Shown: positions 1-42,491, counted from the stretch's first letter. The stretch is 64,000 nucleotides of DNA from Pseudomonadota bacterium (GCA_021798115.1 JAJZYM010000001.1:44421-108420), one strand, 5' to 3'. Translations and numbers: made by a program. Notes: generated by a model from the letters alone, not told the origin.

Positions 1-1080
1 CTCATGGATCCAAATCATATCCAGATCTCGGCGCAGGTTTTCAATCCAACGGACGATTTCCCGGGCCTCCCAACCGGTGTGAAACAGATAGCGCTGACAG
101 ATACCGACTTCCGGTGCGATTGTTGCCAAGCTTTGCAGTTGCAGGAGATCGGAAGCGAAATCGACCGGACAGTCCGGCCAGCGAGACAAAAGCTCCCGTG
201 CACGAATACACGCGTTCCGATAACGGCAAAGATATTGAAAAAAGACTTCAATGATCTTCATGCTCTCGCGATTGATGGCGAAAAAGCTCATATCCTCGAT
301 GCAAAGCAGATCTCGACTGTGCCCCTCCTCTCCGTGCACATGCACGCTCAAGTAATGGTGGAGGCGTTCCAGTTTCAGGTCCATCAGCTGCTGACTACGA
401 CCTTCGGACAGCGCGGCACGGGCCACCGGATCGCCCCCGTCCCACTCCGACACACGTCCCAACGCAGCCAGCTGGCGAGGCCGGGGCTCCTTGGCCTCCC
501 ACGAGAACCAAGCGGCGACTTGGACCCCGACCAACTGATTGAGAAAGTAAAGGATCTTTCTCAACAGCGGTGGGTCCAGCACGCCTTGCCGCCGGCGCAG
601 GTCGTCCCGCAATTCCCGCAAGGCGCTCCGCACCGAAACCGGTTGGTACAAGAGACTCTGCTCCAGACGATCAAGGGAGGTGCGCGTGACATAAAGGTCG
701 TCTGCCAGCTGGCGTAGGCGGGTGGTGGTGATCTCTTCCTGCAAGGCGCGTCGGGTTTCTTGGCGTCTCCAGGCGGAGGCGTACTCGGCACCGATGAGGG
801 TCACCAAGAGGGTGCCGGCAGCGGCGGGAAGGAGGACGTCCGTCGGATAAGGATGCCACCAAGAAGCGGTGGTGAGAACCAATGTAGCCAGAGCTCCCGG
901 CAAGAACTCGTAACGCAGTGCGATGAGCAAAGGAACGAGCACCAGCCAAGGGAAAGGCTGGTGCAGCAGTAGCGGATCCCACGGAACCAGAAAATGGGTG
1001 ATCAGGAGGGCCACGGCCGGAAGCAAGATTGCTTCCAACCAGCCCTCCCTGCGTCGCGGGATCGCCGTCAAGAGACGCAT
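1..1080 (-). CDS. pelD: PelD-like c-di-GMP receptor (4 TM helices then cytoplasmic GAF/GGDEF-like region); partial, continues beyond the window start
   Basis: ATG at 1080 lies 2 nt after the pelC stop. The translation MRLLTAIPRRREGWLEAILLPAVALLITHF... has N-terminal TM helices. Its position after pelA-pelB-pelC matches the pel operon order. The plus-strand ORF 4..717 is its antisense artefact. Confidence 0.55.
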   Translation of the reverse strand, partial: MRLLTAIPRRREGWLEAILLPAVALLITHFLVPWDPLLLHQPFPWLVLVPLLIALRYEFLPGALATLVLTTASWWHPYPTDVLLPAAAGTLLVTLIGAEYASAWRRQETRRALQEEITTTRLRQLADDLYVTRTSLDRLEQSLLYQPVSVRSALRELRDDLRRRQGVLDPPLLRKILYFLNQLVGVQVAAWFSWEAKEPRPRQLAALGRVSEWDGGDPVARAALSEGRSQQLMDLKLERLHHYLSVHVHGEEGHSRDLLCIEDMSFFAINRESMKIIEVFFQYLCRYRNACIRARELLSRWPDCPVDFASDLLQLQSLATIAPEVGICQRYLFHTGWEAREIVRWIENLRRDLDMIWIHE

Positions 1081-1082
1081 GC

Positions 1083-1619
1083 TCAACGCGCCAAGACGTG
1101 ATCCAGGAGCCGCTGAATCAAACGCTGAGCCACACCTCCCGTCCCCCTGGACCCTAGGCTACCGCCGTGGGCGCTACCCACGCCGCTCCACACCACACGA
1201 CCGTTGGCCACATTCACCACCCAGAGGGTTATGGCCACTTCCGGCTCGGCGTTGATGCCGGCACGGTATGTCCATTCATCCACGCTTCCCGTCAAGGCAT
1301 AGCGGGCACCGTGGCGACGGGCAGACGCCAACGCCTTGGCGTACTCCGTTTTCCAGTTCCCGCCAAACAGGACCTGAGTGCGGGTACTGATGGGAAGATT
1401 GCCGACCACGCGCTGATCGTCACTCTGCAGGATTCCGGCAGCCAGAGTGGCGGCCCGGGCATTGGCCATGGGCGTTCCGGTGTTGTTGATGAAGGGAAGT
1501 ACCGCCCAGATCACATCCCGTGTCTTGGGCAGCGGCTTCGCCGTGTGTAGATCCATACCCGCACAACCCGAAAGCAGTGCCGTCAGGCCCAAAGTCACAA
1601 GCACATATCGCCATCTCAT
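1083..1619 (-). CDS. pelC: PelC outer-membrane lipoprotein
   Basis: 178 aa with a lipobox (LLSGC) signal peptide. Size and position between pelB and pelD fit PelC. Confidence 0.6.
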   Translation of the reverse strand: MRWRYVLVTLGLTALLSGCAGMDLHTAKPLPKTRDVIWAVLPFINNTGTPMANARAATLAAGILQSDDQRVVGNLPISTRTQVLFGGNWKTEYAKALASARRHGARYALTGSVDEWTYRAGINAEPEVAITLWVVNVANGRVVWSGVGSAHGGSLGSRGTGGVAQRLIQRLLDHVLAR

Positions 1620-1644
1620 CGTTCACTCCTCACTGTTTAGAAAA

Positions 1645-4600
1645 TCAAAAATAAAAGCGGTATCCCATCTTGAAAATCTGTTGATTGACGGCCAGGCCAC
1701 TGTTTGCCTGACCTTGGGAAAAACCGATGCGTAGACGGTCGGGGCCAAAGACCGGCGTACTGAGGCCGGTATCGAGCTGGTATTGGAGCCCAAAACGGGT
1801 ATTCTCATAGAGGAGAACCGCTACGTAGGGTGTCCAGTTGCTGTGGAGGGCACGCGTCCAACGGCCCCATTGCAGGCGCATGCCGATATCGCTGTTGGTC
1901 CCAGGTAGCACCGTATCAATGTTGCGTGCACCGGGGACCAAACTTTGCGCCACAACGCCCACGAGCCGTCTATTACGTTGCATCCCATAGTAATCGATGA
2001 AAGGACCGACCTGCAGTTTCCAAGGCCCCAGACTGTGGCGCCAAAACAGCGACAACTCACCAACAAGCCCAGAGCCGAGATCAACACCGTCCTGGCCTTG
2101 ATATTGCCGCCAACCGGCTCCCGCATCACCCACCCAGGATCCCACCTGGTCCGTCCACTGTACTTGAAACTTGTTGACCATGCCCGCCACCGTCAGAGCC
2201 GGGCTCTCCAGACTGCTCAAGCTACGATCGTGGTACTGCCAAGTGGCCGTGAGCCCGCTGGTGTCGGACACCTGCCAGTAAGCCTTCACGCCCAAGGTCG
2301 GGTTGTTCCGCACCCCCTGATATTCGCCGAGCAAGACCTGGACCGTCCAGCGTGGGTGTTGCCAGTAGAAGCCCACGGCTTCGCGTCGACTCCAGACCGG
2401 CACGGCCAACAACTGTGAGGAGCTCGTCACCGATTGGTGCAGATCATCGACTCCAAAGAGAAGCCCCCAGTCATTCCCAAAAGCCAAGCGGCCGCGCAGC
2501 CGTGGACCCAACAACGTCAGGCCGTTGAAATGCAACCAGATCCCCGAGAGATCCAAATAGCTGGCACTCCGGCGCACAGCCCGTACATATTCCCGACGCA
2601 GACGCCGATCGTTGGGATTCATGCCCATCTCGGCCAAGGCATCGGTACGCGCCTCGTCATAGTGGCCCAGATCCATCTGGGCCCGCACGCGACCGCGAAT
2701 CTGCAACCGCTCGGGATGCTGCAAAAGCCGTTCCAACTCGGCGTTGTCGGGACGGTGCAGAGCCAGACTCAGCTTGGCCCAGGCCGGGTCGGGTCGGGGG
2801 TTGGTTTCGATGAGGAACTGGGCCAATTCCCAATCCCCCTGCGCCATGGCCCATGAAATGGCGGGCAGGTAGTCGCCGCGCCGGGCTGCGGCCGAAAGCA
2901 CACGAAGAGTGGTATTCCCGACACTCGGTAACGAAGAAAGGCTGACGGCCAGGGCATGCAGGGGATGGCGAGAGACAACCAATGTCTTCCCGGACGCGGC
3001 GTGGGAGCGGGCCACGACACCCGAACCACCGCCGACATCTTCGCCGGAGCTCCGGTTGCGTGACGAGACGGTGTCTTCCGGAGTCGTCGGATCGACGACG
3101 GATCGTGACACCGGATCTTCCGGGACATAGCACTGGGCACCCCCCTCGGTCACCCGTGCACTGACAGATCCGGACGCGCGCCGAACCGTGTAAACCTTCC
3201 GCTTCCCGCCGTGGTTCTCCCACTGTTGGTCCAGCCGACGCAGACTGAGCCACGCCGCCTGCCAACGCTGCGACCAGGCCAGCCCCGGATCTCCATTCGC
3301 CGCCCAAAGACCCGCTTGATTGAGCAGGTCGGACACGGAGGTGTTGTGTCCTCTCGACCCCTCACTGAGGCTCAGGTCAAGCGCCGCACGATTCCGCCCA
3401 ATACGCTCCAAAGCATCGACAACCACATCGTGCAATCCTGGCGGGGGGTGGAGAGCGTCGTCAACCAAGAGAGCACGCAGGGTGCGTCTCTGATAATGGT
3501 CGATCAACATCCACATGAGGTTGCTCTCGGCCACCTCATCTCCGGGATTGAGTTGGAGCACCCGGGCGTACGCCCGAGCGGCCAGACCGTAATCGCCTTG
3601 AGCGTCGGCCCATTGTCCCACGGCCATCCAATAGGCGGGGTAATGACGGATGTTGTCGACATCATGAACGGAAACCTGCCGCAGAAGGTCTCCCAATTGC
3701 CGCCAATTTTGTATAACACCCGCGTAATAGAGCGCTTCGAAATAAAAGAGAGGAAGACGATAGTGCTGCCATCCCTCCTTGGCGATGTACATCGCTGCTC
3801 TTGCATTCCTCTTTCCATTCAGGAGGACCAAGCGCTGCATATCGTACTGACTGGTTGCGCCCAACAAGTACAGAGTCTTTTCCGCCGACAAAGCAGCCGG
3901 GTTGTTGTATATTTTCCAGGCGATCACGGCGTACAGCTTCCAAAAGGGAACATCGTTGAGATTGACCAACGAGCGGACCCTTTCCAAGGCTTCAAAGGCG
4001 AGGCGGTAGTGCCCCTGCATCGACAGAAGCCGCGCTTCCACCAAGGCGATATGAGGCGTCGAGCCGTACAATCGCGCGCGACGCTGCAAGGCGGCCAGAC
4101 TTTGATTGATCCGACCCAGCTCGTAGCTGAGGTAGGTCTTTTGCTCCAAAAGGTAGCGACGTGGTCCACCGCGCCGCAAGGCCTCATCGACATCGGCCAG
4201 GGCTTTGCTCGGTTCCCCCAACGACCCGTAGGCAAAAATCAGGGATTTCCATTCGGCGTCGCTGAGGGTGGCAGTCCGGGCCCCGGGGCTGAGGAGTTGG
4301 ACCACCAAATCCGGGCGAGACAGGCTCAGGGCCAAGGTCACGGCTTTCCGGATGGCGGCCGCGTCGCCGTGTTGGGCGAGCCAGAACCACTGAGTCAGCA
4401 CCTGCTCTCGTTGCCCCAACCAGAGAGAGACCCGGATGAGACGCCGGCGCCAACGTCGATCGTTCGGACGTTGCAAGACCGCGGAGTAGGCCAGCCGATA
4501 CGCGTCTTGCAACCGGTGACTCTGCAGGAAGACGCTGTAAGCAAAATCGTAGAGCTTGGCCGAATACCGGCCGGGAAAGGGCTGCACGACCAAGGGAGCG

Positions 4601-4851
4601 ATATACCAAGAAGGCGAAACACCGCCCTGATTCAGGTAGCTCATGCCCTGGCCGGTCTTCTGGTGTTGCAGCAAGGCGGCCGCGTAGGCGTCGGCGTTCT
4701 CCTTCCGCCGCAGGTATTGGGCTCGCCATTGTGCATCGTCGGAAGCCAGGCTGCCCGGAGCGGTCCACCAATCCCGCGGCACACAGATCGGACGGGCTTG
4801 TGCCGCAAGCGGGATCAGAAGGCAGCAAAACAAAACAACCTTGCGTTTCAC
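1645..4851 (-). CDS. pelB: PelB C-terminal portion: Sec signal peptide, TPR repeats, disordered linker, C-terminal beta-barrel porin ending in Phe
   Basis: GTG at 4851 overlaps the TGA of the upstream TPR gene (GTGA). The start VKRKVVLFCCLLIPLAAQARP is a classic signal peptide. TPR-like repeats fill the middle and the C-terminus ...FKMGYRFYF has the OMP signature. The long ORF 1645..5586 is an in-frame upstream extension that overlaps the TPR gene in another frame. Confidence 0.6.
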   Translation of the reverse strand: MKRKVVLFCCLLIPLAAQARPICVPRDWWTAPGSLASDDAQWRAQYLRRKENADAYAAALLQHQKTGQGMSYLNQGGVSPSWYIAPLVVQPFPGRYSAKLYDFAYSVFLQSHRLQDAYRLAYSAVLQRPNDRRWRRRLIRVSLWLGQREQVLTQWFWLAQHGDAAAIRKAVTLALSLSRPDLVVQLLSPGARTATLSDAEWKSLIFAYGSLGEPSKALADVDEALRRGGPRRYLLEQKTYLSYELGRINQSLAALQRRARLYGSTPHIALVEARLLSMQGHYRLAFEALERVRSLVNLNDVPFWKLYAVIAWKIYNNPAALSAEKTLYLLGATSQYDMQRLVLLNGKRNARAAMYIAKEGWQHYRLPLFYFEALYYAGVIQNWRQLGDLLRQVSVHDVDNIRHYPAYWMAVGQWADAQGDYGLAARAYARVLQLNPGDEVAESNLMWMLIDHYQRRTLRALLVDDALHPPPGLHDVVVDALERIGRNRAALDLSLSEGSRGHNTSVSDLLNQAGLWAANGDPGLAWSQRWQAAWLSLRRLDQQWENHGGKRKVYTVRRASGSVSARVTEGGAQCYVPEDPVSRSVVDPTTPEDTVSSRNRSSGEDVGGGSGVVARSHAASGKTLVVSRHPLHALAVSLSSLPSVGNTTLRVLSAAARRGDYLPAISWAMAQGDWELAQFLIETNPRPDPAWAKLSLALHRPDNAELERLLQHPERLQIRGRVRAQMDLGHYDEARTDALAEMGMNPNDRRLRREYVRAVRRSASYLDLSGIWLHFNGLTLLGPRLRGRLAFGNDWGLLFGVDDLHQSVTSSSQLLAVPVWSRREAVGFYWQHPRWTVQVLLGEYQGVRNNPTLGVKAYWQVSDTSGLTATWQYHDRSLSSLESPALTVAGMVNKFQVQWTDQVGSWVGDAGAGWRQYQGQDGVDLGSGLVGELSLFWRHSLGPWKLQVGPFIDYYGMQRNRRLVGVVAQSLVPGARNIDTVLPGTNSDIGMRLQWGRWTRALHSNWTPYVAVLLYENTRFGLQYQLDTGLSTPVFGPDRLRIGFSQGQANSGLAVNQQIFKMGYRFYF

Positions 4852-5705
4852 GATGGCCTCGGCGTGCCACGCTGCCGTAATTCCCGATAAAGCCATCGCG
4901 CCGCCAGATCGGGTCGATCGGCCGCCAGAGCTAGGCGAGCCATGAACATCACGACTTGACGATCCTGCCAGAGTCTTGGTGCTCGTGCGAGAAGCGCCCG
5001 GCACCGGGCCAACGCGACAACGGAACCGAGCCCACCCTCCAACCACTTCGCTCCCTGGAACAGGAGGGCTTCCTGCCAAGACGGATTCCGTGTCTCCGCC
5101 GCCAGATCCAGGAGAATCTGAGCCGCGGCGGCGGGATCGCCTTTCGCGGCCAAAGCCAAGGCCGCCTCCCGACGATCCTGCCACGACAACGCCGGATCGG
5201 CCAGGGCTGCCTGTTCCCAAAACCTTGCGCTGAGCCCATAGGCCCCTACGGCAGAAGCCCCTTGGGCCAACGCCCGCCACTGCTCCGGCGTCCAGCCGCC
5301 GAGCTTGAGCATGCCGTCCAGTATTGGAAGCGTCCCGGCTTCCGCTCGACGACGCCGGGGCGATTGGGGAGGGATGGCCAGGGTTTGTGCCTGCGCGATC
5401 TGCCACCTTATCCAGCGAGCCGAACGGTAGAGGGGATTCCCCGGGTTCGCCAGGATCGGGGCAATCAGCTTCTGAGCGTCCCTGTATTGCCCCCCCCGCA
5501 TCATCAAGGCGGCACTCTGCAGTTGCGCCCGAGCTTCCCCGAACGAATCGCTGAAAGTTCGGAAGTTTGGCCAACCGTACTGCCAAGTCACGGCCAAGGC
5601 TCCCACGAAGACCAGCAAAGCAAACAAGATCAGGCTCGTGGGGCGGAAGAGACGCGTCCGCGTCTCAGAAGCGCGACGAGACACAGCGGGCTTGAAGTCG
5701 AACAT
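4848..5705 (-). CDS. membrane-anchored TPR protein corresponding to the N-terminal segment of PelB (split pelB)
   Basis: ATG at 5705 (MFDFKPAVSRRASETRTRLFRPTSLILFALLVFVGALAVTWQYGW) gives one TM helix followed by TPR-like repeats. The ORF ends with TGA at 4848-4850 overlapping the GTG of the downstream PelB portion. It overlaps the pelA 3' end by about 40 nt. Confidence 0.5.
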   Translation of the reverse strand: MFDFKPAVSRRASETRTRLFRPTSLILFALLVFVGALAVTWQYGWPNFRTFSDSFGEARAQLQSAALMMRGGQYRDAQKLIAPILANPGNPLYRSARWIRWQIAQAQTLAIPPQSPRRRRAEAGTLPILDGMLKLGGWTPEQWRALAQGASAVGAYGLSARFWEQAALADPALSWQDRREAALALAAKGDPAAAAQILLDLAAETRNPSWQEALLFQGAKWLEGGLGSVVALARCRALLARAPRLWQDRQVVMFMARLALAADRPDLAARWLYRELRQRGTPRPS

Positions 5706-8502
5706 GCAGGGCGGTGCTCCGCAGTTGACCAGTGCGGGCCAGGGAGACGGGCTTGCCGTCGAGGAAGATTCGGCAATCCTGAACGTTGGCCACCCGTGCA
5801 CGGACCGGGACTGTACCGTCCAGCCGTGCCGCGAAGCCCAAGGCATTCTCTCGATAGTCCGCAATCGCCGCGTTGGCACTGACGATGTAGGGACGCTTCG
5901 GAGGTCTTGGCTGCAAAGCAAGGTAGACTGAGTCCTGCCCGTCCGTGTGCACATACCAACGTCCGTTGGGAGAGGCATCGTATCCGGCTATGCCCTCGCT
6001 CTGCCTCAGATCGGGGTAGCCGAGCTCCTTGGGCATGCGCAACTCGCGTAACGCCCGGGCCCCGCCGATCCAAAAGCCGTGTCCCTGTCGTGCAATGCGA
6101 ATCGTGAAGAAATTGTTGGCGATCTTCGCATACTCGGCCACGTAGATCGGGGTGATGGGTCGGGCCACAACCCAGTTGTAGACCTTCTCCAAGGCCGAGA
6201 GGGACGCCAGCTTTGTGGCGCTGTACCAGTGAGTGTAGATGTCGATGGGCTTGAGGCGGTGGGGTTTGTCGGTCATTTTGAGAGTTTGGATGACGTCGAT
6301 GAAACCCCAATAGGGTCCGTGCCATTGATTGGTAAAATAATCCTCGTTGGCATCGGGTGCGAAAACCTGAAGCCATTTGCCCCGGAAAATCCCGATGGGC
6401 GGGACGGCGGTGATACTCGGGTTCTGTTTGCTGATATAGCTGTTACCGCCGTTGATGTTTTCCAGCCCGGCCTTATAGGCCAAGCCCACGACCTGAGCGT
6501 CGGGGGCGCAGTCGCCCGACCACTGATCGATCACCACCCGTTTGCCCGGCGGTGCCAGATGTTTGTCGATCCATCGGGCCGCACCCACAGCTTCCATGTA
6601 AGGGCTGAACTTGTAGCCCGGAACCGGAAGATTGATGCCGGGAAAATCCTCTCCCGCTTCAATAGCCGGCCAGTTGAAGGGATGGGACCACATGTGCGAA
6701 CCGATCTCGACATACGGCAACCGGAAGACCTCGCGGGCCACACGCACACCCAAAGGCGCGATGGCGGGGTAGAGACCCCGATCTCCCGGCAGCAAATCAC
6801 CGACGATAACCGAGCCGGTAAAAGGCAGACGGTACTTCTTGAGGATCCGGTCCATGTAGACCTGGCCGGCAATGTGGTAGGGGGGGAAATCAGCCCGACT
6901 CAAGAAGCCATCGCCATCCGTGTGAGCCATGAACAAGCGACGTCCGCTCTCGGTCGTGGTATCGGGCACCGGCATCTTGGGCAAACGTAAGGCTTGCCGG
7001 TAGAGGGCAAAGGGGTCGACCAACCATCGAGTGTCCCGGTTGGGCAGAGTCGTGAGCACGTACGGGCTCAGCACATAGCCGCCCCAGGGGGTAATGGCCG
7101 CGGCATCCTCTTGGGCACCCCTACGGTTCCGCAATTGCAACCAGATTCGACTCCCGACGGGAGCCCGAGCAACAAGAAAATCTCGGGGATCGGGCGTGAC
7201 AGGCATCTCATAATTCATGCGCGACGACGCATGCCGCAGATGCAGGACCCGCACGCGCAGGGAGTGGAACTTTCGCATCCCCAGCGCCTGAAACGCGCGG
7301 GCATCCAGATCGGCCTGGAATCCTCCCATCAAGAGAACAGGTATCCCCTGCTCTTTGGCAACGCGAATCCATTTCGAGAGGGAGGCCAGGTCCTCCACCG
7401 GGTCGCCGTCACTCCAGACCATGATTCCGGCGTACTCACCGGGCACAGGGGGGGGCGGCATCCCTTGGGAGAAACGCCGAAACTTTGGGACATATCCCAG
7501 ATATTCCAACGGCATGATCCCGTACGCGAAGGGGGTGCTGTACTCTTCCGATTGCGCGCTGTCGTAAAGGATCAGGACCTTTCGTGGCATCGGCTCACGG
7601 AGCCCTGCCCCGACGGCGGTGAGCTCGGGATTGCTGACGTAAGGGATGAACCCTGCGGCACGAATCCGTTGGGCATCCCGCCACCAGCCGGTGCGATTGA
7701 GTGTCGCCGGCATATAGTCGAGGACAATCGCCCGCAACCCGTAGCCCTGGGCTTTGTGTAGGTTCCGCAGCAACACCCTGCGCGCCGCCTCCGAAACATG
7801 AGTGAAACGGCGATCCGCCTGCTTCCAACCGCGATACAGAGACTCGGCAAGAACCGCAACGAGGTCCTGATGAATTTTCGGGAGCACGGCAAAGCCGCGA
7901 TTGGCGATGAGTTTGGCATCTGGGTGCGCGGCCTTGATGGCCTTGATCAGCTCCACCAATCCTTTTTCCTGAGCAATACGAGCCTCTCCTTGGGTGGCAG
8001 CATCGTAAGAGTCCAACGTGTCGAGAAAGAAGCCCCGATACCCTTGGCGCCAAACGGGATCAATCACACGGTGGAGCAAATAGTTCCTGCAACGGTCCTT
8101 GGCCAGGTCAATGATTTGTCCACCCCAACTGCGGTTACGGCCCAAAACACAATCGACCGGCATCCGAGCGTAGCGGGAGTCGCCGGGCACGGTCTGACCG
8201 AGACTGATATAGGCAAAGACTAGTTGCCGACGGAAATCCTGAGGCAACCGTTGCTTGCCCGGATTGACGACGAGCCAATCGAAATCGCGAAAGGCCGCCG
8301 GGACCGGCCCCGACCCATAATAAAGGCCGACACTGGGAGATGATGCCTGGGGCGCAGCCCAGGCAACGGCACACCAAGAAACAGCAACGGCGCACCAGCA
8401 ACTCCAAACAAAAACGCACCACTTACCGCTGGGCCGTCGAGATCGAGAGAGATTTCCTGTTGCGTGGACCTCCCGATCCGAGACAAATTTTTCACTCAAC
8501 AC
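5665..8502 (-). CDS. pelA: PelA (GH114 glycoside hydrolase plus polysaccharide deacetylase, multidomain)
   Basis: About 946 aa. The N-terminal region has a GH114-like TIM-barrel (…IANRGFAVLPKI…) and the rest is long and multidomain. A signal-peptide-like segment WCVFVWSCWCAVAVSWCAVAWAAPQ is present. The first ATG at 8595 sits in AT-rich, atypical codons, so the start is more likely GTG/TTG near 8502. The start is uncertain between 8502 and 8595. Confidence 0.65.
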   Translation of the reverse strand: MLSEKFVSDREVHATGNLSRSRRPSGKWCVFVWSCWCAVAVSWCAVAWAAPQASSPSVGLYYGSGPVPAAFRDFDWLVVNPGKQRLPQDFRRQLVFAYISLGQTVPGDSRYARMPVDCVLGRNRSWGGQIIDLAKDRCRNYLLHRVIDPVWRQGYRGFFLDTLDSYDAATQGEARIAQEKGLVELIKAIKAAHPDAKLIANRGFAVLPKIHQDLVAVLAESLYRGWKQADRRFTHVSEAARRVLLRNLHKAQGYGLRAIVLDYMPATLNRTGWWRDAQRIRAAGFIPYVSNPELTAVGAGLREPMPRKVLILYDSAQSEEYSTPFAYGIMPLEYLGYVPKFRRFSQGMPPPPVPGEYAGIMVWSDGDPVEDLASLSKWIRVAKEQGIPVLLMGGFQADLDARAFQALGMRKFHSLRVRVLHLRHASSRMNYEMPVTPDPRDFLVARAPVGSRIWLQLRNRRGAQEDAAAITPWGGYVLSPYVLTTLPNRDTRWLVDPFALYRQALRLPKMPVPDTTTESGRRLFMAHTDGDGFLSRADFPPYHIAGQVYMDRILKKYRLPFTGSVIVGDLLPGDRGLYPAIAPLGVRVAREVFRLPYVEIGSHMWSHPFNWPAIEAGEDFPGINLPVPGYKFSPYMEAVGAARWIDKHLAPPGKRVVIDQWSGDCAPDAQVVGLAYKAGLENINGGNSYISKQNPSITAVPPIGIFRGKWLQVFAPDANEDYFTNQWHGPYWGFIDVIQTLKMTDKPHRLKPIDIYTHWYSATKLASLSALEKVYNWVVARPITPIYVAEYAKIANNFFTIRIARQGHGFWIGGARALRELRMPKELGYPDLRQSEGIAGYDASPNGRWYVHTDGQDSVYLALQPRPPKRPYIVSANAAIADYRENALGFAARLDGTVPVRARVANVQDCRIFLDGKPVSLARTGQLRSTALHVRLQARCVSSRF

Positions 8503-8840
8503 GGAGTTTGCCTGAGCCGCCTCACGCTCCACATCAGTCTCCGCATCTAGAATAATCCTATATTTGAAATGATACCATACCATACTTTTGTCCAAACCCA
8601 GGGGTGGGCGGACCTTAAGGAATCTCCCAACATTCTTCCCATCACCCTCTCATGATCGATATTTGAAAAAATACACATCCCCGGAGATCATCGACCATCG
8701 AATTTCTATTCAGAGGAATAGACACACCGCCGTTCGATATCCATCGCCTCAATCCCCGAGAGAGGGAGAGGCGATGGCCGCGTTGTTCAGGACCTTCTCT
8801 GCGTTAAGGCCCCCCGATTCATAGAGCTCGAGGGCTTCAT
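8503..8840 (-). promoter_or_regulatory. AT-rich putative pel operon promoter/leader region with two ATATTTGAAA direct repeats exactly 100 bp apart (8560-8569 and 8660-8669)
   Basis: A marked AT-rich island in a ~67% GC genome lies immediately upstream of pelA. It carries a repeated 10-mer. No sigma factor consensus could be assigned confidently. Confidence 0.3.
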
Positions 8841-8842
8841 GC

Positions 8843-9698
8843 GTGGCCCATCCGATTGATTTCGAGGTCCTCCCGCGCGACGTCTCGCGATCCACAGCCG
8901 CCTTGGGTGGGAAAGGGCTCCATCGACTTATTGAGAGATCGGAGTGCCGGACGGCCACCACCGCCACAATCACCGGTGTCGTGGATCATCGCGGTCCCTG
9001 GCTCACGACACACGAAGGGATGCGTCATCTTTCTTGTTGGGGCTGAAGTAGCCAAGGGGCTCACAGGGCTCTATGATGGCTACGATGTATCAAGGTAAAA
9101 GCCGCCTCAGTCCCCGTCAGCAAAGCAAGCTGATCGAGCATGTTGTGGCGGGCAGCACGGCGCCTCCTGCCGCTGAGATCGTCGGCGCTCGGCCCAACAC
9201 CGCGATCCTCTTCTTCATGCACCCGCGCCCGCTGCCCGTCCGCAAGCTCCCGAGCTATCGGCTCTGTGGCGAGGGGGAGGCGGATGAGAGGGGCTTCGGG
9301 GGTGTGCGCAAGGGCAAGCGAAGCCGCGGCGCGGCAGGCAACGTGGTCGTCTTCGGGCTTTGAAGCGGAGCGGGAAGGGTTACACCGCCATCATCGCCAA
9401 CGCCCGAACCGAGACGGTGCGGCCTATCCTTCAGGAGAAGGTCGAGCCTGACAGCATCGTTGATGCCGAGGCGCTCGGCGCCTTCAATGCGCTCGATGCA
9501 TCCGATTTCCATCATCGGCGAACCAATCACCCAAAGCGCTTTACCATGCGGCAGAATCCCCAACAACGGCATCGAGAATTTGCGAACCAGGACAAGCGTC
9601 CGATGCGCAAGTACAGCGGGATCAAACCGGAGTACTTTTACGGGGTTTTGAAAGAGTGCGAGTGGCGTTTCAATGGAGGCAATCACTCACAGCCCTGA
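8843..9698 (+). pseudogene. IS1595-family (ISXO2-like DDE) transposase remnant, disrupted by several frameshifts
   Basis: Fragments spread over three frames reassemble into IS1595 transposase motifs: GFGGVRKGKRSRGAAGNVVVFGL / KRSGKGYTAIIANARTETVRPILQEKVEPDSIV... / ...NGIENL... / ...KRPMRKYSGIKPEYFYGVLKECEWRFN. These correspond to KRGRGAAGK..VFG, TDE..Y, HINGIENFWS and YL.EFEFRYN. No intact ORF or terminal inverted repeats were found. Confidence 0.6.
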
Positions 9699-9825
9699 AG
9701 CAGCTAAAATCCTGGGATAAACAGGCAAAACACGAGCCTTTCGCTTAGCTACCTCGGCTCCAAAAGCAAAGAGTGTTGGAGCACGCTTTGCTTTATACAA
9801 TTTATTATTTTTATCATATTTAGTT

Positions 9826-9899
9826 TGGCTGGGGGACGTGGATTCGAACCACGGTTCGCGGAGTCAGAGTCCGCTGTCCTACCGCTAGACGATCCCCCA
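9826..9899 (-). tRNA. tRNA-Gln (anticodon CUG)
   Basis: The minus-strand sequence TGGGGGATC GTCT AGCGGTA GGAC A GCGGA CTCTGAC TCCGC GAAC CGTGG TTCGAAT CCACG TCCCCCA G CCA folds as a cloverleaf. It has a U1:A72 pair, G73 discriminator, GGTTCGAATCC T-arm, encoded CCA and a CUG anticodon in a 7-nt loop. Confidence 0.85.
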
Positions 9900-9913
9900 G
9901 CGACGGCAACGGA

Positions 9914-10312
9914 TCAGCGCTTCGAGTACTGGCTGGCGCGACGGGCCTTGTGCAACCCCACCTTCTTGCGTTCGACAGCGCGTGGATCACGGGTCAGAAG
10001 GCCCTGCGCGCGCAGTGCCGAGCGCAGATCGGGTTTGTACGCGACAAGCGCCCGGGCAAGTCCGTGACGGACGGCACCGGCCTGTCCGCTGCCGCCTCCA
10101 CCGGTGACGGTGACCACGACATCCACCGTGTCGAGGAGTTCGGCCACACGCAGCGGCTGGCGAACGAGCATCTGCGAGGTCTCCCGCGGGAAATAGGCCT
10201 CGAGGGTGCGTCCGTTGACCGTGATATGTCCGGCGCCGGGCCTAAGAAAAACACGGGCCGCGGCGGTCTTGCGCCTCCCGGTCCCGTAGGTCTGGAACTT
10301 GCGTGTCGCCAT
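9914..10312 (-). CDS. rpsI: 30S ribosomal protein S9
   Basis: [35 protein letters not shown]...[13 protein letters not shown]. The start was chosen at the MATRKF methionine within the longer ORF. Confidence 0.9.
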
Positions 10313-10347
10313 GGGTTTCCTCGTCGCGTCCTCGTGGGAGACGTGTG

Positions 10348-10800
10348 TCAGTCGGTCCCGGCGCGGGGCCCGCACGGCTCCCACGACTCGGGGTTTTGCG
10401 CGGCGTGCGGATGTTCCGCACCGCCATAAATCTTGAGTTTCCGGAGCATGGAACGACCCAGGGGATTCTTGGGCAGCATCCCGGCGACGGCGTCGCGGAC
10501 GATCCCCTCGGGGTCGTGGCCGACGCGGGTGCGGAAGGCCTCACTTTTGAGTCCGCCGATATAGCCCGAGTGGCGGTGGTACATTTTCGCCTCGTCCTTG
10601 CGTCCGGTGACGGCAACCCGCGTGGCGTTCACGACAACGACGAAATCGCCGGTATCGACGTGCGGCGTGTAGACCGGCTTATGCTTGCCGCGCAAGCGAT
10701 GGGCGACGGCACTCGCCAACCGTCCGAGCGGGAGACCGGCGGCGTCGACCAGATACCAGCGGCGCGCAACGTCGTCGCGACGCGCGGAGCGTGTGCTCAT
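10348..10800 (-). CDS. rplM: 50S ribosomal protein L13
   Basis: ...[47 protein letters not shown]...[17 protein letters not shown] matches the L13 signature. It lies directly upstream of rpsI, the conserved rplM-rpsI operon. Confidence 0.9.
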
Positions 10801-13415: not shown

Positions 13416-14849
13416 TCAGCCGCGGCTCGCCTCGACGCGAAGAATCCTGAGGGCGTTCGTCCCGCCCGCGACCCCCTCACGATCCCCGCGGGTCACGACC
13501 ACAAGGTCGCCCACCTTCACGGCTCCGATCTCGAGAAGACGTCGAACCGCTTCCCGAGGAACGTCGGATCCCGCCGCCAAGGGGTCGAAATCCACGGGGA
13601 CGACCCCCCGCATCAGGGTCACACGGGCGCGTGTGCGGGCGTTGCGGGTCAACGCGTAGATCGGCACCGCGGTGCGCACCCGCGAACAGAGCAGCGCCGT
13701 CGTCCCCGACTCGGTCAGCGCGGCGATCGCCTGCGCCCCGAGTCCGGAGGCGGCGTGGACGGCGGTCATGGCGATCGCCTCGTTGACCGTCTCCCACCGT
13801 TCGTCCCCGCGCAGCCGCGAACGGGTCGTGACACGTTCCTGTTCCGCACCCACACACACACGGGCCATGGCTTCGACGGCCTTGACAGGATGGCGACCGA
13901 CCGCCGACTCGGCCGAGAGCATGACCGCGTCCGTTCCGTCGAAGACGGCGTTGGCCACGTCGAGAACCTCGGCCCGGGTCGGCACGGGCGAGTGGACCAT
14001 CGATTCCATCATCTGGGTGGCGGTGATCACGAGCGCCTTCGTCTCGTGGGCCGTGCGCAGAATGCGCTTTTGGGCGCCGGCGAGTTCCCAGTCGCCGATC
14101 TCGACCGCAAGATCACCACGCGCCACCATCACCCCCGCGGCAATGTCGCACAGTGGGCGCACGTTGGCAAGAGCCTCGGCGCGTTCGATCTTGGCGATCA
14201 CCCCGGCGTCGGAGCCGGCCGCGTCGAGAAGACGATGGGCCTCGCGGACGTCGTCGGCGTCGCGGGCAAACGAGAGCGCCACGTAGTCGGCGCCAATGTC
14301 GGCCGCGGTGTGGATATCGGCGCGGTCTTTGTCGGTGAGGCAGAGAGCGCTCAAGCCCCCGCCCTGACGGTTGAGCCCCTTGTGGTCGCTCAAAACCCCC
14401 CCCGTCACGACCCGACAATCGACGGTGGTGGCGGTCGTGGCGGTCACACTCAGGACGAGTTGCCCGTCGTCGAGTAGGAGCCGATCGCCCGGGTGGACGT
14501 CGGAGGGAAGCGCCGGGTAGTTCACCCCGACCCGCCCGCCGTCCGCGGGCGCGTCCCCGAGTTCGGTATCGAGCACCAGACGATCGCCTTCAGCCAACGT
14601 GAGCGCGCCGCCGCGGAAACGGCCGATGCGGATCTTGGGCCCGGCCAGGTCGAGCAGGACCCCAACGTCACGGCCCACGCGGGACGCGGCCGCCCGCGCC
14701 TCGCGCGCCAGCCGCTCGATCAGGTCGCGGTCTCCGTGGGCGGCGTTGATGCGCACGAGATCGACCCCGGCGCGGACCATGGCCTCGAGAACGGCCCCGT
14801 CTTGGCTCGCGGGCCCAAGAGTGGCGATGATTTTGGTGCGCCGCATCAC
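13416..14849 (-). CDS. pyk: pyruvate kinase
   Basis: [15 protein letters not shown]... and the ...[12 protein letters not shown]... motif, with a full-length alignment-like match at 477 aa. Confidence 0.9.
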
Positions 14850-16036
14850 CCGCTCCGCCCGCGGGCGGCCAGCGCCTCGAGAGCGGGCATCCGCCCGCCC
14901 TCGAGGAGAGTGAGGAAGGCCCCCCCTCCGGTCGAAACGTAGGACATCGCCCCCAGAAGGCCGAAGCGCTCGAGCGCGGCGAGCGTATCCCCTCCCCCGA
15001 CGAGGGTGTAGCCGCGCGATTGCGCCACCGCCTGGGCCAGGCCGCGTGTGCCGTCGGCGAACTGAGGATGCTCAAAGACGCCGAGAGGTCCGTTCCAAAG
15101 AACCGTGCCAGCTTCGCGGCAGAGAGGCCCCCACGCGGCCACCGTCTCGGGACCGATGTCGAGGATCATGTCGTCCGCGCCCACGGCACCGAGCGGGCGG
15201 ACGTCGGCTTCGGCCGTCGGGTCCGGCGCGCGGGCGACGACCACATCGATCGGGAGCGGCACCTCGACCTTCCGCGCGCGGGCACGCGCAAGAAGAGCGG
15301 CCGTCGCGTCCACTTCCCCCGGTTCGTGGAGCGAGCGACCGACCCCGACGCCGCGGGCGGCGAGCACGGTGTTGAGGATGCCGCCTCCCAGAAGAAGGGC
15401 GTCCACCCTCTCGAGAAGCGCTCCAAGAAGGGAAAACTTCGTCGACACCTTCGCCCCCCCGACGATGGCAACCACCGGCCGCTCGGGGGCGTCGCGGGCC
15501 CGGGTGATGGCTTCGACTTCGGCGACGAGAAGAGGTCCGGCGCAAGCGCGGGGGGCGGCGAGGACAGCGCTGTGGGTCGAGGCCTCGGCACGGTGTGCGG
15601 TCGCAAAGGCGTCCATGACGTAGACGTCACCGAGCGTGCCGAGAACGCGCCCCCAGTCCTCGTCGTCGCGGACCTCGCCCGGAAAGAAGCGGAGATTCTC
15701 GAGGAGGAGGATCCTCTCCGGCCCTCCCCATCCCGAGATCAGGGCGTCGGGGGTTGCGCAGAGACGGACACGTTCGCCCAAGATCTCGTCGAGAGCGGCG
15801 GCCACCGGAGCGAGAGACAGCGACGGATCCCACGTCCCCCGTGGGCGGCCGAGATGGGAGAGGCAGGCCACGCGAGCGCCACCCTCGAGCAGGAGGCGCA
15901 ACGTGGGGAGAGCGGCGCGCAGCCGGGCGTCGCTCGCGACCCGCCCGCCCTCGAGCGGGACGTTGAAATCCTCGCGCACGACGACCCGTCGCCCGCGCCA
16001 GTCGACGTCGTGAAGCGTCGGGAACACAACGGCCAC
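14846..16036 (-). CDS. pgk: phosphoglycerate kinase
   Basis: FPTLHDVDWRGRRVVVREDFNVP...VVAIVGGAKVSTKF...VSTGGGAFL. GTG at 16036 sits 2 nt downstream of the gap stop, so the in-frame N-terminal extension of the ORF was rejected. Confidence 0.9.
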   Translation of the reverse strand: MAVVFPTLHDVDWRGRRVVVREDFNVPLEGGRVASDARLRAALPTLRLLLEGGARVACLSHLGRPRGTWDPSLSLAPVAAALDEILGERVRLCATPDALISGWGGPERILLLENLRFFPGEVRDDEDWGRVLGTLGDVYVMDAFATAHRAEASTHSAVLAAPRACAGPLLVAEVEAITRARDAPERPVVAIVGGAKVSTKFSLLGALLERVDALLLGGGILNTVLAARGVGVGRSLHEPGEVDATAALLARARARKVEVPLPIDVVVARAPDPTAEADVRPLGAVGADDMILDIGPETVAAWGPLCREAGTVLWNGPLGVFEHPQFADGTRGLAQAVAQSRGYTLVGGGDTLAALERFGLLGAMSYVSTGGGAFLTLLEGGRMPALEALAARGRSG

Positions 16037-16038
16037 GG

Positions 16039-17049
16039 TCAACGGGCCGCGAGCCACGCGTGCGCGGTATCGAGCATGCGGTTCGAGAACCCCCACTCGT
16101 TGTCGTACCAGGCACAGACCTTGACGAGACGGCCCCCATTGACGCGCGTCAGTGTCGCGTCGTAGATCGACGAGGCCGGTTGATGGTTGAAGTCGATCGA
16201 GACCAAGGGTTCCTCATTGACGACCAGAATCCCGTGGAGCCCCCCCTCGGCGGCCCGCCGGAGAACGGCGTCCACCTCTTCACGGCTCGTCTCGCGGGCG
16301 GCCACAAACGTCAGATCGAGGAAGGAGACGTTGGCGGTCGGCACCCGCACGCTGTAGCCGTCGAGACGGCCCGCCAGCTCGGGCAGGACGAGACCCACGG
16401 CCACCGCCGCACCGGTCTTGGTCGGGATCATCGACAGCAGTGAAGAGCGGGCGCGTCGGGGATCCTTGTGGTAGACGTCCAAAACCACCTGGTCGTTGGT
16501 GGCGGCGTGCACCGTCACCATGAGACCGCGCTCGATCCCGATCTCGCGCGCCAAAGGGTGCACGAGCGGCGCGAGACAGTTGGTGGTGCACGAGGCGTTC
16601 GAGACAATCGTTTCCGCGGCCGTGAGTCGCTCGTGGTTGACCCCGTAGACGATCGTGGTCACATCGTCGCCGGCCGGAGCCGAGATGAGGACTTTGCGCG
16701 CCCCCGCGGCGAGATGCTGGCTGGCCTTGGCACGGCTGGCGAACGCTCCCGTGCACTCGAGAACGAGATCGATCCCGAGCTCTTTCCAGGGAAGCCGGCT
16801 CGGGTCGCGTTCGCTCAGCACACGAATCTTGGTCTCACCCACCACCAGAGACTCCCCCTCGCTCCGGACCGGGACGGGGAACGCCCCGTGGACCGAGTCG
16901 TGGCGGGTCAGGCGCACGTTGCTCTCGAGATCGGCGAGATCGTTGATGGCGACGATCTCGAAATCCCGAGACCGGCGGGTTTCGACGAACGCGCGCAGCA
17001 CGTTGCGTCCGATGCGGCCGTAGCCGTTGAGGGCAAGTCGCGGACTCAT
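16039..17049 (-). CDS. gap: glyceraldehyde-3-phosphate dehydrogenase
   Basis: [14 protein letters not shown]...[13 protein letters not shown]. The ATG overlaps the tkt stop (ATGA). Confidence 0.9.
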
Positions 17050-19082
17050 GCTTGATCTCCGGATGAAGAAGCCAAAAGCGTACGGGCGCGCGCGCAGACG
17101 GTCTCGACATCGAAGCCGAGGGCACGCGCAACCTCGGGTCCGGGCGCCGAGAGCCCGAAGCGGTCAAGGCCCAGAACGGCGCCGCGGGGGCCGGCGAGGC
17201 CGGCCCAGGCGGCGGTGGCCCCAGCCTCGATGACGAGGCGGCGTTCGAGAGCGGAGGGCAGAATCCGCTCCCGGTAGGCAGGATCTTGCCGTTCGAAGAC
17301 CTCACGCGAGGGCATCGAAACCACACGGACGGCGCGCCCCTCGGCTGCCAGGCGGGCGGCCGCCTCGGTGGCCAGCGCGACCTCGGAGCCGGTGGCCAGA
17401 AGCAGGAGCTCGGGCGGCTTCGACGGTTCGCTCACGATGTAGGCCCCACGCGCGACGTCCTCCTCCACCGGATGCGGAAGCGGGGGGAGACCCTGGCGGC
17501 TGAGCACGATGAGGGTCGGCCCGTCGCGTCGCGTGAGGGCATCGCGCCAGGCGACGACCGTCTCGAACGCGTCCGCGGGTCGCCAGAGGGTGATCCCGGG
17601 AATGAGGCGCAACGAAGCGAGCTGCTCGATCGGCTGGTGGGTCGGACCGTCCTCCCCGAGCCAGATCGAGTCGTGGCTGAGGAGGTAGATCGCCGGAAGA
17701 CGCATGAGGGCCGCGAGACGCAGGGCGTTGCGAGCGTAGTCGGTGAAGACCAGGAAGGTGGCCCCGAACGGGATCAGCCCGCCGTGGAGAGCGAGCCCGT
17801 TGACGGCCGCGACCATGGCAAACTCGCGCACGCCGTAGTGAAGATAACGGCCCTCGAAGGCCCCCGGTCGGATCGCCTCCGCCCCCTCCCAAAGCGTCGC
17901 GTTCGACTCGGAGAGATCGGCCGAGCCGCCGACGAGCTCCGGAAGAGCCGGCGCGATCGCTCCGAGCACCGCATGCGAGGAGCGCCGGGTGGCCTCGGGC
18001 TTCGTAAGCGTGCGGGTGCGCTCGAATGCGTTCCGCCAGCAGGCCTCGAGATCTTCGGGGAGATCCCGCCTCAAGCGCCGCTCGAACTCCTCGGCCAGCG
18101 CGGGGAACGCACGGCGGTAGGACGCCAAACGATGCTCCCACTCGGCCACCAGCGCGGCTCCGGCCTCCCGGCGATCGAAGGCGGCGTAGATTTCGGGAGG
18201 AATCTCAAACGGCGGATAGGGCCAACCGAGTTCCGCGCGCGCGCGCGCCACCTCTTCCGCCCCGAGGGGGGAGCCGTGGGCTTCGGCCGTTCCCTGCTTG
18301 TCGGGAGCTCCGTACCCGATCACCGTACGGCAGAGAATGAGGGTCGGCCGATCCTCGCCGCTGCGGGCCTCGAGGATTGCACGGTTCACCGCCTCACCAT
18401 CCAGGCCGTCGACGGGGCCGAGCACGCGCCAGCCGTAGGCACGGAAACGGCCGGCCGTATCATCACGGAACCAGCCGTCGACGGCTCCGTCGATGGAGAT
18501 GCCGTTGTCGTCGTAAAGAACCACAAGGCGGCCGAGTCCCAGGCTTCCGGCAAGTGAGGCGGCCTCGTGCGAGACGCCTTCCATCAGGCAGCCGTCGCCC
18601 ACGAACACGTAGGTGCGATGATCGACGAGGGTGTGGCCCGGACGGTTGAAGGTTTGGGCCAGAAGACGCTCGGCCAACGCCATGCCCACGGCGTGGGCGA
18701 AGCCCTGACCGAGAGGACCGGTGGTGGTCTCCACGCCCGGCGTGAGTCCGTGCTCCGGGTGCCCCGGTGTCCGGGAGTGAAGCTGGCGAAAAGCCTTGAG
18801 ATCCTCGATCCCGAGCTCGTAGCCGGTCAGGTGCAGGACCGCGTAGAGCAGCATCGACCCGTGTCCGTTCGAAAGCACGAAACGGTCGCGATCCGGCCAG
18901 TCCGGATGACGGGGAGAGAAACGGAGATGGTCGAGAAACAGGGTTTCGGCGATATCGGCCATGCCCATGGGCATGCCGGGATGACCCGAGCGCGCTTTCT
19001 CGACGGCGTCCATGGCGAGAGCGCGGATGGCGTTGGCCCTGAACCGGCGTCCTGTCGGGGAAGGGCGAGGATGGGACGGCAC
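17046..19082 (-). CDS. tkt: transketolase
   Basis: [31 protein letters not shown]...[13 protein letters not shown]... at 678 aa. The N-terminal start may lie a few codons inside the ORF. Confidence 0.9.
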
Positions 19083-19226
19083 GGCCAGGGGCTCCGGAAA
19101 GCGCTCACGCGTCGGACCCGACCAATTGTCACCGATCCTTCGCTCACGGGCAAGCCCTCTCGCCCGCGGTCACGAGGAGCGCTCGCCGTCACGGCAGGCG
19201 CGAGCGCACCGCTCGGGTTCACAAAA

Positions 19227-19244
19227 CTGTCATAAATCTGCCAT
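19227..19244. promoter_or_regulatory. putative Pho box (PhoB binding site) upstream of pstS
   Basis: CTGTCATAAATCTGCCAT is two 7-bp CTGTCAT-type direct repeats with an 11-bp period. It lies 45-62 bp upstream of the pstS start codon and may also serve the divergent tkt promoter. Confidence 0.45.
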
Positions 19245-19288
19245 ATGCTTCCGCTGTCCTCCCTCCGACGTCGCTCCGAAGTCCCGTT

Positions 19289-20359: not shown

Positions 20360-20373
20360 CCGCCCCTCCCACG

Positions 20374-21321: not shown

Positions 21322-22189
21322 CCCCTCACGCCGCACCCTCCCCCGCGCGCAGATTGCCCGCCGCCGTCTGACCGCGGCCGCCGGCTGGAGCCTGGCGGCC
21401 GCGGCCTTCGGGATCCTCGCCCTCGCGATGATCCACATCCTTGGGCTCACGTTCGTGCGCGGCCTCGCCGCCCTCGGGCCGCGGATTCTGACACGCAACA
21501 CCGAGGGCACGGGGGGCGGGCTGCACAACGCCATCGTCGGCACCTTCGCCCTCAGCCTCGGGGCGCTCCTTCTCGTCGCCCCCCTCGGCGTGACGGTCGG
21601 AATCTATCTCAGTGAGTTCGGACACGGCCGCTTCGCGGCGCTCGTCCGTTTCCTGAGCGATGTCCTCGTGGGCGTCCCCTCGATCGTCCTCGGCTATTTC
21701 GGCTACATCACCCTTGTGCTCAAATTTGGTTGGCGGTTCAGCCTCGCGGCGGGAGCCGTCACGCTCGCGATCCTGATGCTGCCGTACGTCGTGCGCACCA
21801 CCGAGCAGGCGCTGCGTCGCGTTCCGGTCGCCCTGCGGGAAGCCGCCTACGCCCTCGGCGGAAACGACCGTCAGGTGGTCCTCCGCATTCTCCTACGCGC
21901 CGCCGCCCCCGGGGTCCTCACCGGGCTCCTCCTCGCGCTCACCCTGGCCACGGGGGAGACCGCCCCGCTCCTCTACACCGCCGGCTGGTCGAACTACGTC
22001 TGGAGCGGACGACTCATCCATCAGCCGGTGGCGTACCTCACCTACGTCATCTGGTCGTTCATCGGAGAACCCTTCCGTTCGGCGCACCGTCTCGCCTACG
22101 CCGCGGCCTTTCTCATCGTGATCTTCATTCTTCTCATCAACGGCGTGACCCGCTTCGCTCTGGCCCGATTCTTCGGCGAGAGCCGCTGA
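21314..22189 (+). CDS. pstA: phosphate ABC transporter permease PstA
   Basis: ...[29 protein letters not shown]... resembles the E. coli PstA N-terminus, and ...[21 protein letters not shown] is the ABC TM signature. GTG at 21314 overlaps the pstC end, so the long upstream in-frame extension was rejected. Confidence 0.8.
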
Positions 22190-22190
22190 T

Positions 22191-22225: not shown

Positions 22226-22245
22226 ACTTCTCCGGAGGCGCCGCC

Positions 22246-23424: not shown

Positions 23425-23436
23425 GCCGAGGTCCCC

Positions 23437-24855: not shown

Positions 24856-24899
24856 GCCGCACGGTGCCCACGGGGTCTCCTCGCGGGCGTGCCCGACCG

Positions 24900-42485: not shown

Positions 42486-42491
42486 GGCCGG

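Follow-up and report, generated by a model that had tools for sequence, protein, structure and literature searches.

A 64,000-nucleotide stretch of DNA from a Pseudomonadota bacterium (GCA_021798115.1 JAJZYM010000001.1:44421-108420; referred to here as the window, with positions counted from its first letter) contains a pel operon in which PelB, a single chain in Pseudomonas aeruginosa, is encoded by two overlapping genes. We show that this split of PelB is genuine and conserved, that both pieces are homologous to PelB and that the downstream pieces carry signal-peptide-like N-termini. As a whole, the data are best explained by a functional pel operon whose PelB is made from two translationally coupled genes, and we consider this explanation highly probable. 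The upstream gene, open reading frame (ORF) A (pelB-N; 4848..5705, minus strand), extends from the ATG at 5705 to the TGA at 4850..4848 and encodes a protein of 285 amino acids, which starts with MFDFKP and ends with RGTPRPS (last codons CCA TCG TGA). ORF B (pelB-C; 1645..4851, minus) extends from the GTG at 4851..4849 to the stop codon at 1647..1645; its translation product of 1068 amino acids starts with VKRKVVLFCCLLIPLAAQARP and ends with GYRFYF. The stop codon of ORF A and the start codon of ORF B overlap in the tetranucleotide GTGA (4848..4851, minus). The original prediction had placed here an ORF with a transmembrane (TM) segment and tetratricopeptide repeats (TPRs), its TGA overlapping the GTG of a second ORF, and this was borne out by the sequence and its translation.

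The set of junctions was drawn from 15 loci found in a scan of species-representative genomes and four obtained by look-up, and the junction was read in 18 related loci. In 17 of these 18 (L003-L020; 41-73% GC; Acidithiobacillia, Geobacter and others), the stop codon of the A gene overlaps the start of the next gene. The overlap has the form ATGA, GTGA or TTGA in 13 cases, TGATG in three cases (Geobacter/Deltaproteobacteria) and ATGAATAA in one case (L018, 41% GC), while in L022 (34% GC) the TAG stop and the next start do not overlap and are separated by 6 nt. The next protein starts in all 18 loci with one to three Lys or Arg residues and no acidic residue, which precede a hydrophobic stretch. 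Behind this stretch, most of them show a small-x-small motif on inspection by eye; examples of such N-termini are MKRATTILCWLCLPVLAHA/SP, MKIRTLTISFVLVWCAMPALA/AS, MLPFAKRIVVAVLLAHCLAGTARS/E and VNARSARRLAAVAALISTTIVAFAATA/EEE. The database homologues of ORF A, which belong to Acidithiobacillus and Igneacidithiobacillus and share 48-99% identity with it, are equally uniform: all ten are 270-287 amino acids long and end in a common alignment column.

Substitutions between the window and L019 (82% nucleotide identity) were counted in both frames on either side of the junction. Within the 600 nt upstream, frame A contains 44 synonymous and 43 nonsynonymous changes, compared with 13 and 72 in frame B. 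Within the 600 nt downstream, the numbers are 54 and 37 for frame B and 17 and 75 for frame A. Therefore, selection switches frame at the junction. These data bear directly on the possibility that the split reflects a sequencing or assembly frameshift, or a recent pseudogenizing mutation, in a single pelB gene. In favour of such an event, the overlap comprises four nucleotides, the two frames could be joined by a one-base change and frame B is open upstream of the GTG as far as position 5586, i.e. for 245 codons; this openness is a matter of chance. However, the junction recurs in 17 independently assembled loci, the ten ORF A homologues all end at the same column, purifying selection acts on frame A before the junction and on frame B after it, a conserved signal peptide is found just past the junction, and the split is present in the complete reference genomes of Geobacter metallireducens GS-15 and Alcanivorax borkumensis SK2. 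Homologue lengths, junctions, substitution pattern and complete genomes therefore exclude an artefact or a pseudogene for practical purposes, and we rate this explanation as extremely improbable. The preference for two proteins over a frameshift in the original prediction is thus supported by the lengths of the homologues, by the 17 overlaps, by the switch of frame in the substitutions and by the homology of both ORFs to PelB described below.

Overlapping frames are also a precondition for programmed ribosomal frameshifting or readthrough, which would yield a one-chain PelB beside or instead of the two pieces, and since frame B is open well upstream of the junction in the window, a shift would indeed produce a fusion. 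Nevertheless, no slippery heptamer is present at the junction, and stops in frame B lie 6-16 codons upstream of the overlapping NTG in L003 and L016, which leaves hardly any room for a shift. In addition, the conserved signal peptide of ORF B would be purposeless within a fused periplasmic protein, and L022 has a TAG stop and an intergenic gap of 6 nt. Given that a slippery site is missing, that L003 and L016 have stops shortly before the start and that the signal peptide would be purposeless, we regard recoding as very unlikely and retain two separately translated proteins.

Gene callers place the start of ORF B 48 nt ahead of the GTG, at an ATG, which gives the 1083-amino-acid protein P0011. 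If ORF B began at this ATG (MALSGITAAWHAEAIVKRK...), the two genes would overlap by 51 nt and not by 4. The upstream ATG is likewise used in the automated call of P0012 (1079 amino acids), and it occurs in the window, in L019 and in several further loci. On the other hand, several loci have no ATG at this position, and in L003 a stop precedes the overlapping NTG; the in-frame stops of L003 and L016 exclude the upstream ATG and mark the overlapping NTG as the conserved start. The ATG is probably a by-product of conserved codons in frame A, xxA-TGG, which encode Arg or Gln followed by the invariant Trp271. Moreover, the Shine-Dalgarno-like GAGG (4857..4860, minus) lies 5 nt upstream of the ORF B GTG, a spacing that fits this GTG. 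Purine-rich motifs (GAGG, AAGGA, GGAGG), read by eye, are clear at the equivalent site in approximately 7 of 15 related junctions and weak or absent in the others. Initiation at the upstream ATG is thus improbable, and the product would be exported with either start.

Both proteins match the architecture of PelB. ORF B aligned with P. aeruginosa PelB (chain 9h80_M, 1193 amino acids) at E 1.7e-24, with residues 110-463 of ORF B corresponding to PelB residues 299-651 and residues 694-1049 to 808-1171. An alignment to PelB and to split homologues had been proposed as a check along with the original prediction; aligned in this way, ORF B sets in at PelB residue 299. The stop/start overlap itself is shared by the split homologues in 17 of the 18 related loci. 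For ORF A, a profile (A1) was built from the alignment of ORF A and its ten homologues. A1 matches residues 108-306 of the 1267-amino-acid one-chain PelB-like protein P0013. An exhaustive hidden Markov model search with A1 through 1.84 billion cluster representatives returned 149 proteins at E <= 1e-3. Without the near-identical cluster of the window, 148 matches were left, of which 98 are stand-alone proteins (230-400 amino acids) and 35 are fused (at least 1000 amino acids). In proteins of at least 1000 amino acids, A1 always matches at residues ~70-300, and all seven long matches that were checked carry TPR_15 and the PelB barrel. One of the long matches, P0140, aligns with P. aeruginosa PelB end to end (residues 9-1189 to 12-1190, E 1e-84), and through this intermediate ORF A is equivalent to approximately PelB residues 86-279. 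Thus, the alignments of A1 with one-chain PelB and of P0140 with PelB identify ORF A as the N-terminal module of PelB, with the break at about residue 285 of the P. aeruginosa protein. The whole of ORF A corresponds to roughly residues 1-285.

Among the 98 stand-alone proteins and the ten homologues taken together, 91 of 108 terminate no more than seven residues from the point where the profile match ends, and an N-terminal TM helix is present in 95 of 108. The layout of the window, i.e. a TM-TPR protein followed by a TPR-porin with a signal peptide, is found again in L015-L020. Stand-alone members that are less closely related to the window are likewise located in pel operons. In L018, the gene order is pelA, a 303-amino-acid A gene, a 982-amino-acid TPR-barrel gene, pelC, pelD, pelE and pelF; L020 has a 392-amino-acid A gene followed by an 876-amino-acid gene, and in L022 pelA is followed by an A gene of 289 amino acids. 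The split of PelB is widespread across lineages.

ORF A has a hydrophobic helix at residues ~22-42 (SLILFALLVFVGALAVTW; 5580..5642, minus; Kyte-Doolittle score 2.3), which is preceded by an Arg/Lys-rich N-terminus. In the ORF A family, the Lys and Arg counts are higher on the N-terminal flank of this helix in 54 proteins and on the C-terminal flank in 18, which favours an orientation with the N-terminus inside. The AlphaFold2 model of ORF A (mean predicted local distance difference test score, pLDDT, of 85) is all-helical and consists of the helix at residues 22-42 and 13 further helices. With this model, a Foldseek search of the PDB returned only generic TPR superhelices, and the sole Pfam match is a weak one to TPR_19. 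A scan of NCBIfam gave no match for ORF A or ORF B. ORF A thus appears to be a bitopic inner-membrane protein with a signal anchor and a periplasmic TPR-like solenoid.

In ORF B, a signal peptide is followed by a clade-specific N-terminal segment, a TPR array, a disordered linker, a helical region and a PelB β-barrel of the 16-strand type with a terminal Phe. This agrees with the signal peptide, TPRs, low-complexity linker and Phe-ending barrel that had been described for the second ORF from the sequence alone; Pfam and hydropathy bear this out, and the signal peptide is a predicted one. Signal peptides were judged by hydropathy and cleavage sites by eye according to the -3/-1 rule; an automatic rule cut too early. 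The predicted Sec signal peptide of ORF B ((V/M)KRKVVLFCCLLIPLAAQA; 4795..4851, minus) contains three Lys or Arg residues and no Asp or Glu, followed by a hydrophobic 10-mer (Kyte-Doolittle score 3.05), and signal peptidase I is likely to cut at AQA/RP after residue 19. Pfam assigned residues 259-539 to TPR_15 (E 1e-37) and residues 761-1067 to PF24604 (E 2.4e-39; 136 bits at a cutoff of 31; 308 of 309 model positions). The C-terminal barrel thus occupies residues 761-1068 (1648..2571, minus) and ends in GYRFYF. No barrel model of Pfam other than PF24604, including those of BcsC and PgaA, matched ORF B at E <= 0.01. The search for homologues of the whole ORF B returned no more than four proteins, probably as a result of TPR words crowding out other candidates. 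The AlphaFold2 model built with four sequences is of low confidence (mean pLDDT 52) and was used for secondary structure alone; it shows helices at residues 98-546 and 630-764, with an unstructured region between them (547-629), and strands at 785-1067. The mature protein starts with a conserved segment of ~75 residues (PRDWWTAPGSLASDDAQWRAQYL...GGVSPSWY; ORF B residues ~20-97; 4794..~4560, minus), to which AlphaFold2 gave low confidence. This segment is common to B and B1 proteins of the Acidithiobacillia type and occurs neither in the B proteins of Geobacter nor in any fused representative.

In the model that we favour for the window, the Arg-rich N-terminus of ORF A would be cytoplasmic, and a single membrane-spanning helix would connect it to a TPR-like solenoid of ~240 residues in the periplasm. 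Ribosomes that terminate at the ORF A TGA, or that bind to the GAGG, would initiate ORF B at the GTG. ORF B would then be exported by Sec, cleaved by signal peptidase I probably after AQA, and treated as an ordinary outer-membrane precursor, like BcsC and PgaA. Its barrel, with the terminal Phe, would be inserted by the β-barrel assembly machinery (BAM) and capped by PelC. In P. aeruginosa, PelA is bound by the TPR array of PelB, and the TPR array of ORF B, which would likewise be periplasmic, may recruit PelA in the same way. The system of the window would be required for the export of Pel; indirect evidence comes from the pel operon of Acidithiobacillus thiooxidans, which is functional and in which deletion of pelD alters biofilm (Diaz et al., 2018; PMC5852609). 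In this model, the orientation of ORF A in the membrane, the cleavage of the signal peptide, translational coupling and the docking of A on B are inferred.

Some points weigh against this reading. Cleavage of the signal peptide, membrane localization and contact between A and B are predictions from the sequence, and the AlphaFold2 model of ORF B is poor. When A1 was searched against the sequences of solved structures, P. aeruginosa PelB was not matched directly and the matches were confined to designed TPR proteins at E ~0.3. Furthermore, where stand-alone representatives fall within clades of fused proteins in the tree, some of them may result from gene calls that are truncated or frameshifted.

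Since two separate proteins are made, the link between the inner- and outer-membrane modules, covalent in P. aeruginosa, must here be non-covalent or absent. We lean slightly towards docking of the ORF A solenoid on the N-terminus of ORF B, by which the trans-envelope scaffold would be rebuilt; the segment of ~75 residues at the start of mature ORF B might be the docking site. Alternatively, the split could be real and ORF A remain undocked, acting at the inner membrane only, within the PelDEFG complex and for instance receiving the nascent polymer together with PelD, PelE and PelG, so that no protein bridge would exist; the outer-membrane TPR-porin would then act independently. Such independence would fit the junction region of fused PelBs, a variable non-TPR spacer of 40-100 residues that suggests two separable modules. 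It is also established that BcsC and PgaA are working TPR-porins with a signal peptide and no inner-membrane anchor, and in the pel locus of Nitrosospira multiformis a PelB of 900 amino acids follows straight after PelA, with no A-like gene (supplementary file 5 of Bundalovic-Torma et al., 2020; PMC7112194). However, the A and B genes are always adjacent and overlapping, which is common for partners needed in matched amounts, and A and B have been fused repeatedly (35 representatives), which is a usual sign of physical or functional partnership; both are indirect arguments. We therefore consider undocked modules possible but rather unlikely.

Docking aside, the closest relatives of the window differ in the number of genes. 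In most of them (Acidithiobacillus, Igneacidithiobacillus and GC-rich 'Proteobacteria' metagenome-assembled genomes, MAGs), pelB is found as three overlapping genes, namely in L001/L005 (Acidithiobacillus sp. IBUN Pt1247-S3), L003, L004, L006, L007, L009 and L011-L013. The products are a TM-TPR protein of ~285 amino acids, a TPR protein of ~550 amino acids and a barrel protein of ~500 amino acids (locus 8001-12015 in L001). The second junction is again NTGA in eight of nine loci and ATGATTAG in L011, and the barrel protein has its own signal peptide, e.g. MSRREYYGFFLVSGLGVLCYAPGVLAA/E. In the window and in P0012, a relative with 78% identity, the reading frame continues from the TPRs to the barrel, with no second overlap and no second signal peptide. 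At this place, the window has a hydrophilic linker between TPR array and barrel (ORF B residues ~547-629; 2965..3213, minus; pLDDT 21-30), whose position coincides exactly with the second stop/start overlap and signal peptide of the close relatives. The linker has no predicted secondary structure in the low-confidence AlphaFold2 model and, when the window is compared with P0012, has diverged far faster than other parts of the protein. A hidden signal peptide, as expected for a disguised three-gene locus, was sought in all frames of the linker; none was found, and no frame contains a hydrophobic segment. A crude tree built for the N-terminal module nests the clade of the window among three-gene clades, so the TPR-barrel chain of the window is probably a secondary re-fusion, and the linker may be the decayed signal peptide left by it. 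Two different pel loci with split pelB occur in each of two genomes, L006 and L011 in Igneacidithiobacillus copahuensis VAN18-1 and L004 and L008 in Ca. I. chanchocoensis, which suggests duplication or acquisition of the operon.

One clade of fused PelBs has a signal-peptide-like segment, '(D)WLVPAAHAA(E)' or 'RRWLVAALSFAIPSAAAAE', exactly at the junction. It was found in P0013 (residues ~308-330), P0014, P0041, P0049, P0078, P0096, P0125, P0148 and P0156, one of which comes from a Burkholderiales MAG. The segment resembles the signal peptides of split forms, such as LIPLAAQA/R in the window and LPVLAHA/S in L003, and this likeness suggests, at least for this clade, that the genes were fused when a single base was lost from the NTGA overlap. 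The neighbour-joining tree for the N-terminal module, which is crude and sampled with a bias towards split forms, does not discriminate between fusion and fission; it required at least 13 state changes, compared with 29 when labels were shuffled. As a tentative and rather doubtful generalization, the two-gene form might be the older one, with one-chain PelBs being secondary fusions that arose by one-base loss in NTGA and the junction segment being the fossil of a signal peptide. If so, the TPR-barrel chain of the window would be the re-fusion of a three-gene ancestor in which the signal peptide of the barrel decayed into the linker. In a bolder version, the junction segment may still be cleaved in some 'single-chain' PelBs.

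The two genes lie in a conserved operon context. pelA (GH114 hydrolase/deacetylase; 5665..8595, minus, as the longest ORF; Pfam GH114, E 1.8e-13) is located directly upstream. Its true start probably lies further downstream than the start of the longest ORF; orthologous PelA proteins have 906-921 amino acids. At its 3' end, pelA shares 41 nt (5665..5705) with the beginning of ORF A. Overlaps of pelA and pelB by 23-35 nt occur in P. aeruginosa (23 nt by the table coordinates of PMC7112194), L001, L018 and L019, and such an overlap therefore seems to be conserved among pel operons. Downstream of ORF B follow pelC (1083..1619, minus), which encodes an LpoB-like lipoprotein of 178 amino acids (Pfam LpoB, E 5.9e-6) and has counterparts of the same length at this position in L001 and L019, and the 5' part of pelD (1..1080, minus; ATG at 1080; MRLLTAIP...), which runs to the edge of the window. 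By eye, the latter is colinear with PelD of L019, where pelD carries PelD_GGDEF. The order pelA, A, B, pelC, pelD, pelE, pelF is kept in L001, L018, L019 and L020. In the window, pelE, pelF and pelG would lie beyond the edge, and the orthologous loci hold pelE and pelF (L019) or pelE, pelF and pelG (L001). When 1..10500 was scanned for promoters and terminators, the counts were those expected by chance, and internal signals were not found. A tRNA-Gln(CTG) gene (9826..9899, minus), the sole RNA gene found in the window by Rfam and ARAGORN, is located ~1.2 kb upstream of pelA; in L019 a PDDEXK_1 gene is found upstream of pelA instead, so the upstream synteny differs. The region 13416..61670 is ordinary chromosome with 64% GC, in which nothing unusual was seen; it contains genes for pyruvate kinase, phosphoglycerate kinase, transketolase, metK, ahcY, a PilQ-type secretin, a class A penicillin-binding protein, a RecG-like helicase and an amino-acid permease.

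Split pelB genes have been recorded before. The legend of Fig. 5 in the study of Bundalovic-Torma and co-workers refers to 'pelB fission ... in aquatic thermophilic species', and their supplementary file 5 lists PelB pairs with 4-nt overlaps for G. metallireducens GS-15 (2189630..2190529 and 2190526..2193360) and A. borkumensis SK2 (987606..988484 and 988481..991261). In the same file, BcsC is divided between two neighbouring genes in Acidithiobacillus ferrivorans SS3 (1582005..1584386 and 1584389..1586017); together with the Nitrosospira locus that has no A-like gene, this may mean that splitting or loss of modules in TPR-porins is more general. For PelB of Acidithiobacillus, possible sequencing errors had been raised (Diaz et al., 2018). 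Beyond the mentions in these two papers, our literature search found no analysis of the split of PelB, of the signal peptides that go with it, of the relic segment or of the three-gene form. Our results answer the doubt of 2018, which is of use to research on bioleaching and on the biofilms of acidophiles, as the odd PelB annotations in Acidithiobacillus are real gene structures and not errors.

Current models of Pel export are based on P. aeruginosa, where a single PelB chain is proposed to have its anchor in the inner membrane and its barrel in the outer one. According to Benedens et al. (2025; PMC12141448), this chain has 22 apolar residues and no signal-peptidase site at its N-terminus and 'may physically bridge two membranes'. 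As the modules are made as separate proteins in many lineages, and as three proteins in most Acidithiobacillia, a covalent tether is not essential to Pel export, and the split loci provide a natural test of the covalent-bridge model. The break at the equivalent of P. aeruginosa residue ~285 also marks a module boundary, i.e. a rational site at which to cut PelB, and in Acidithiobacillus genomes the label 'hypothetical protein' for the gene between pelA and pelB should give way to that of an N-terminal PelB part. Altogether, the split is of modest importance, and the locus of the window is a further case of a two-gene variant that was recorded but hardly described before, not a new kind of system.

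Among known systems, the window shares its gene layout with the two-gene loci of G. metallireducens and A. borkumensis, where a gene of ~293-299 amino acids and one of ~926-944 amino acids overlap by 4 nt between pelA and pelC. The Geobacter MAG loci L015-L017 have the same type of junction and signal peptide, whereas the proteins of the window are only distantly related to those of these two-gene loci (35-53% identity over short segments). The earlier record of these loci (PMC7112194) consists of coordinates and a legend and contains no analysis of signal peptides, topology or distribution. In the alginate system, TPR scaffold (AlgK) and porin (AlgE) are likewise encoded and exported separately, an additional split that is shared by the three-gene relatives L001 and L003-L013. 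However, it is established that AlgK and AlgE belong to other protein families and that AlgK is a lipoprotein, whereas the window has TPRs and barrel in one chain. BcsC of the cellulose system and PgaA of the poly-N-acetylglucosamine (PNAG) system have the same build as ORF B, i.e. signal peptide, TPR array and porin, and presumably follow the same route of biogenesis; the likeness is architectural only, as the barrel family differs. We know of no separately encoded inner-membrane TPR partner of BcsC or PgaA. With PelB of P. aeruginosa (PA3063, 1193 amino acids; cryo-electron microscopy structure 9h80), finally, the window shares TPR_15 in a homologous TPR array, the PF24604 barrel and the position between pelA and pelC in an operon of the pelABCDEFG type. 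In contrast to that single chain with its uncleaved N-terminal hydrophobic segment, the chain of the window is broken at a position equivalent to residue ~285. ORF A, and not the porin polypeptide, carries the anchor and the first ~285 residues, and ORF B has its own signal peptide of the cleavable type and the additional N-terminal segment of ~75 residues.

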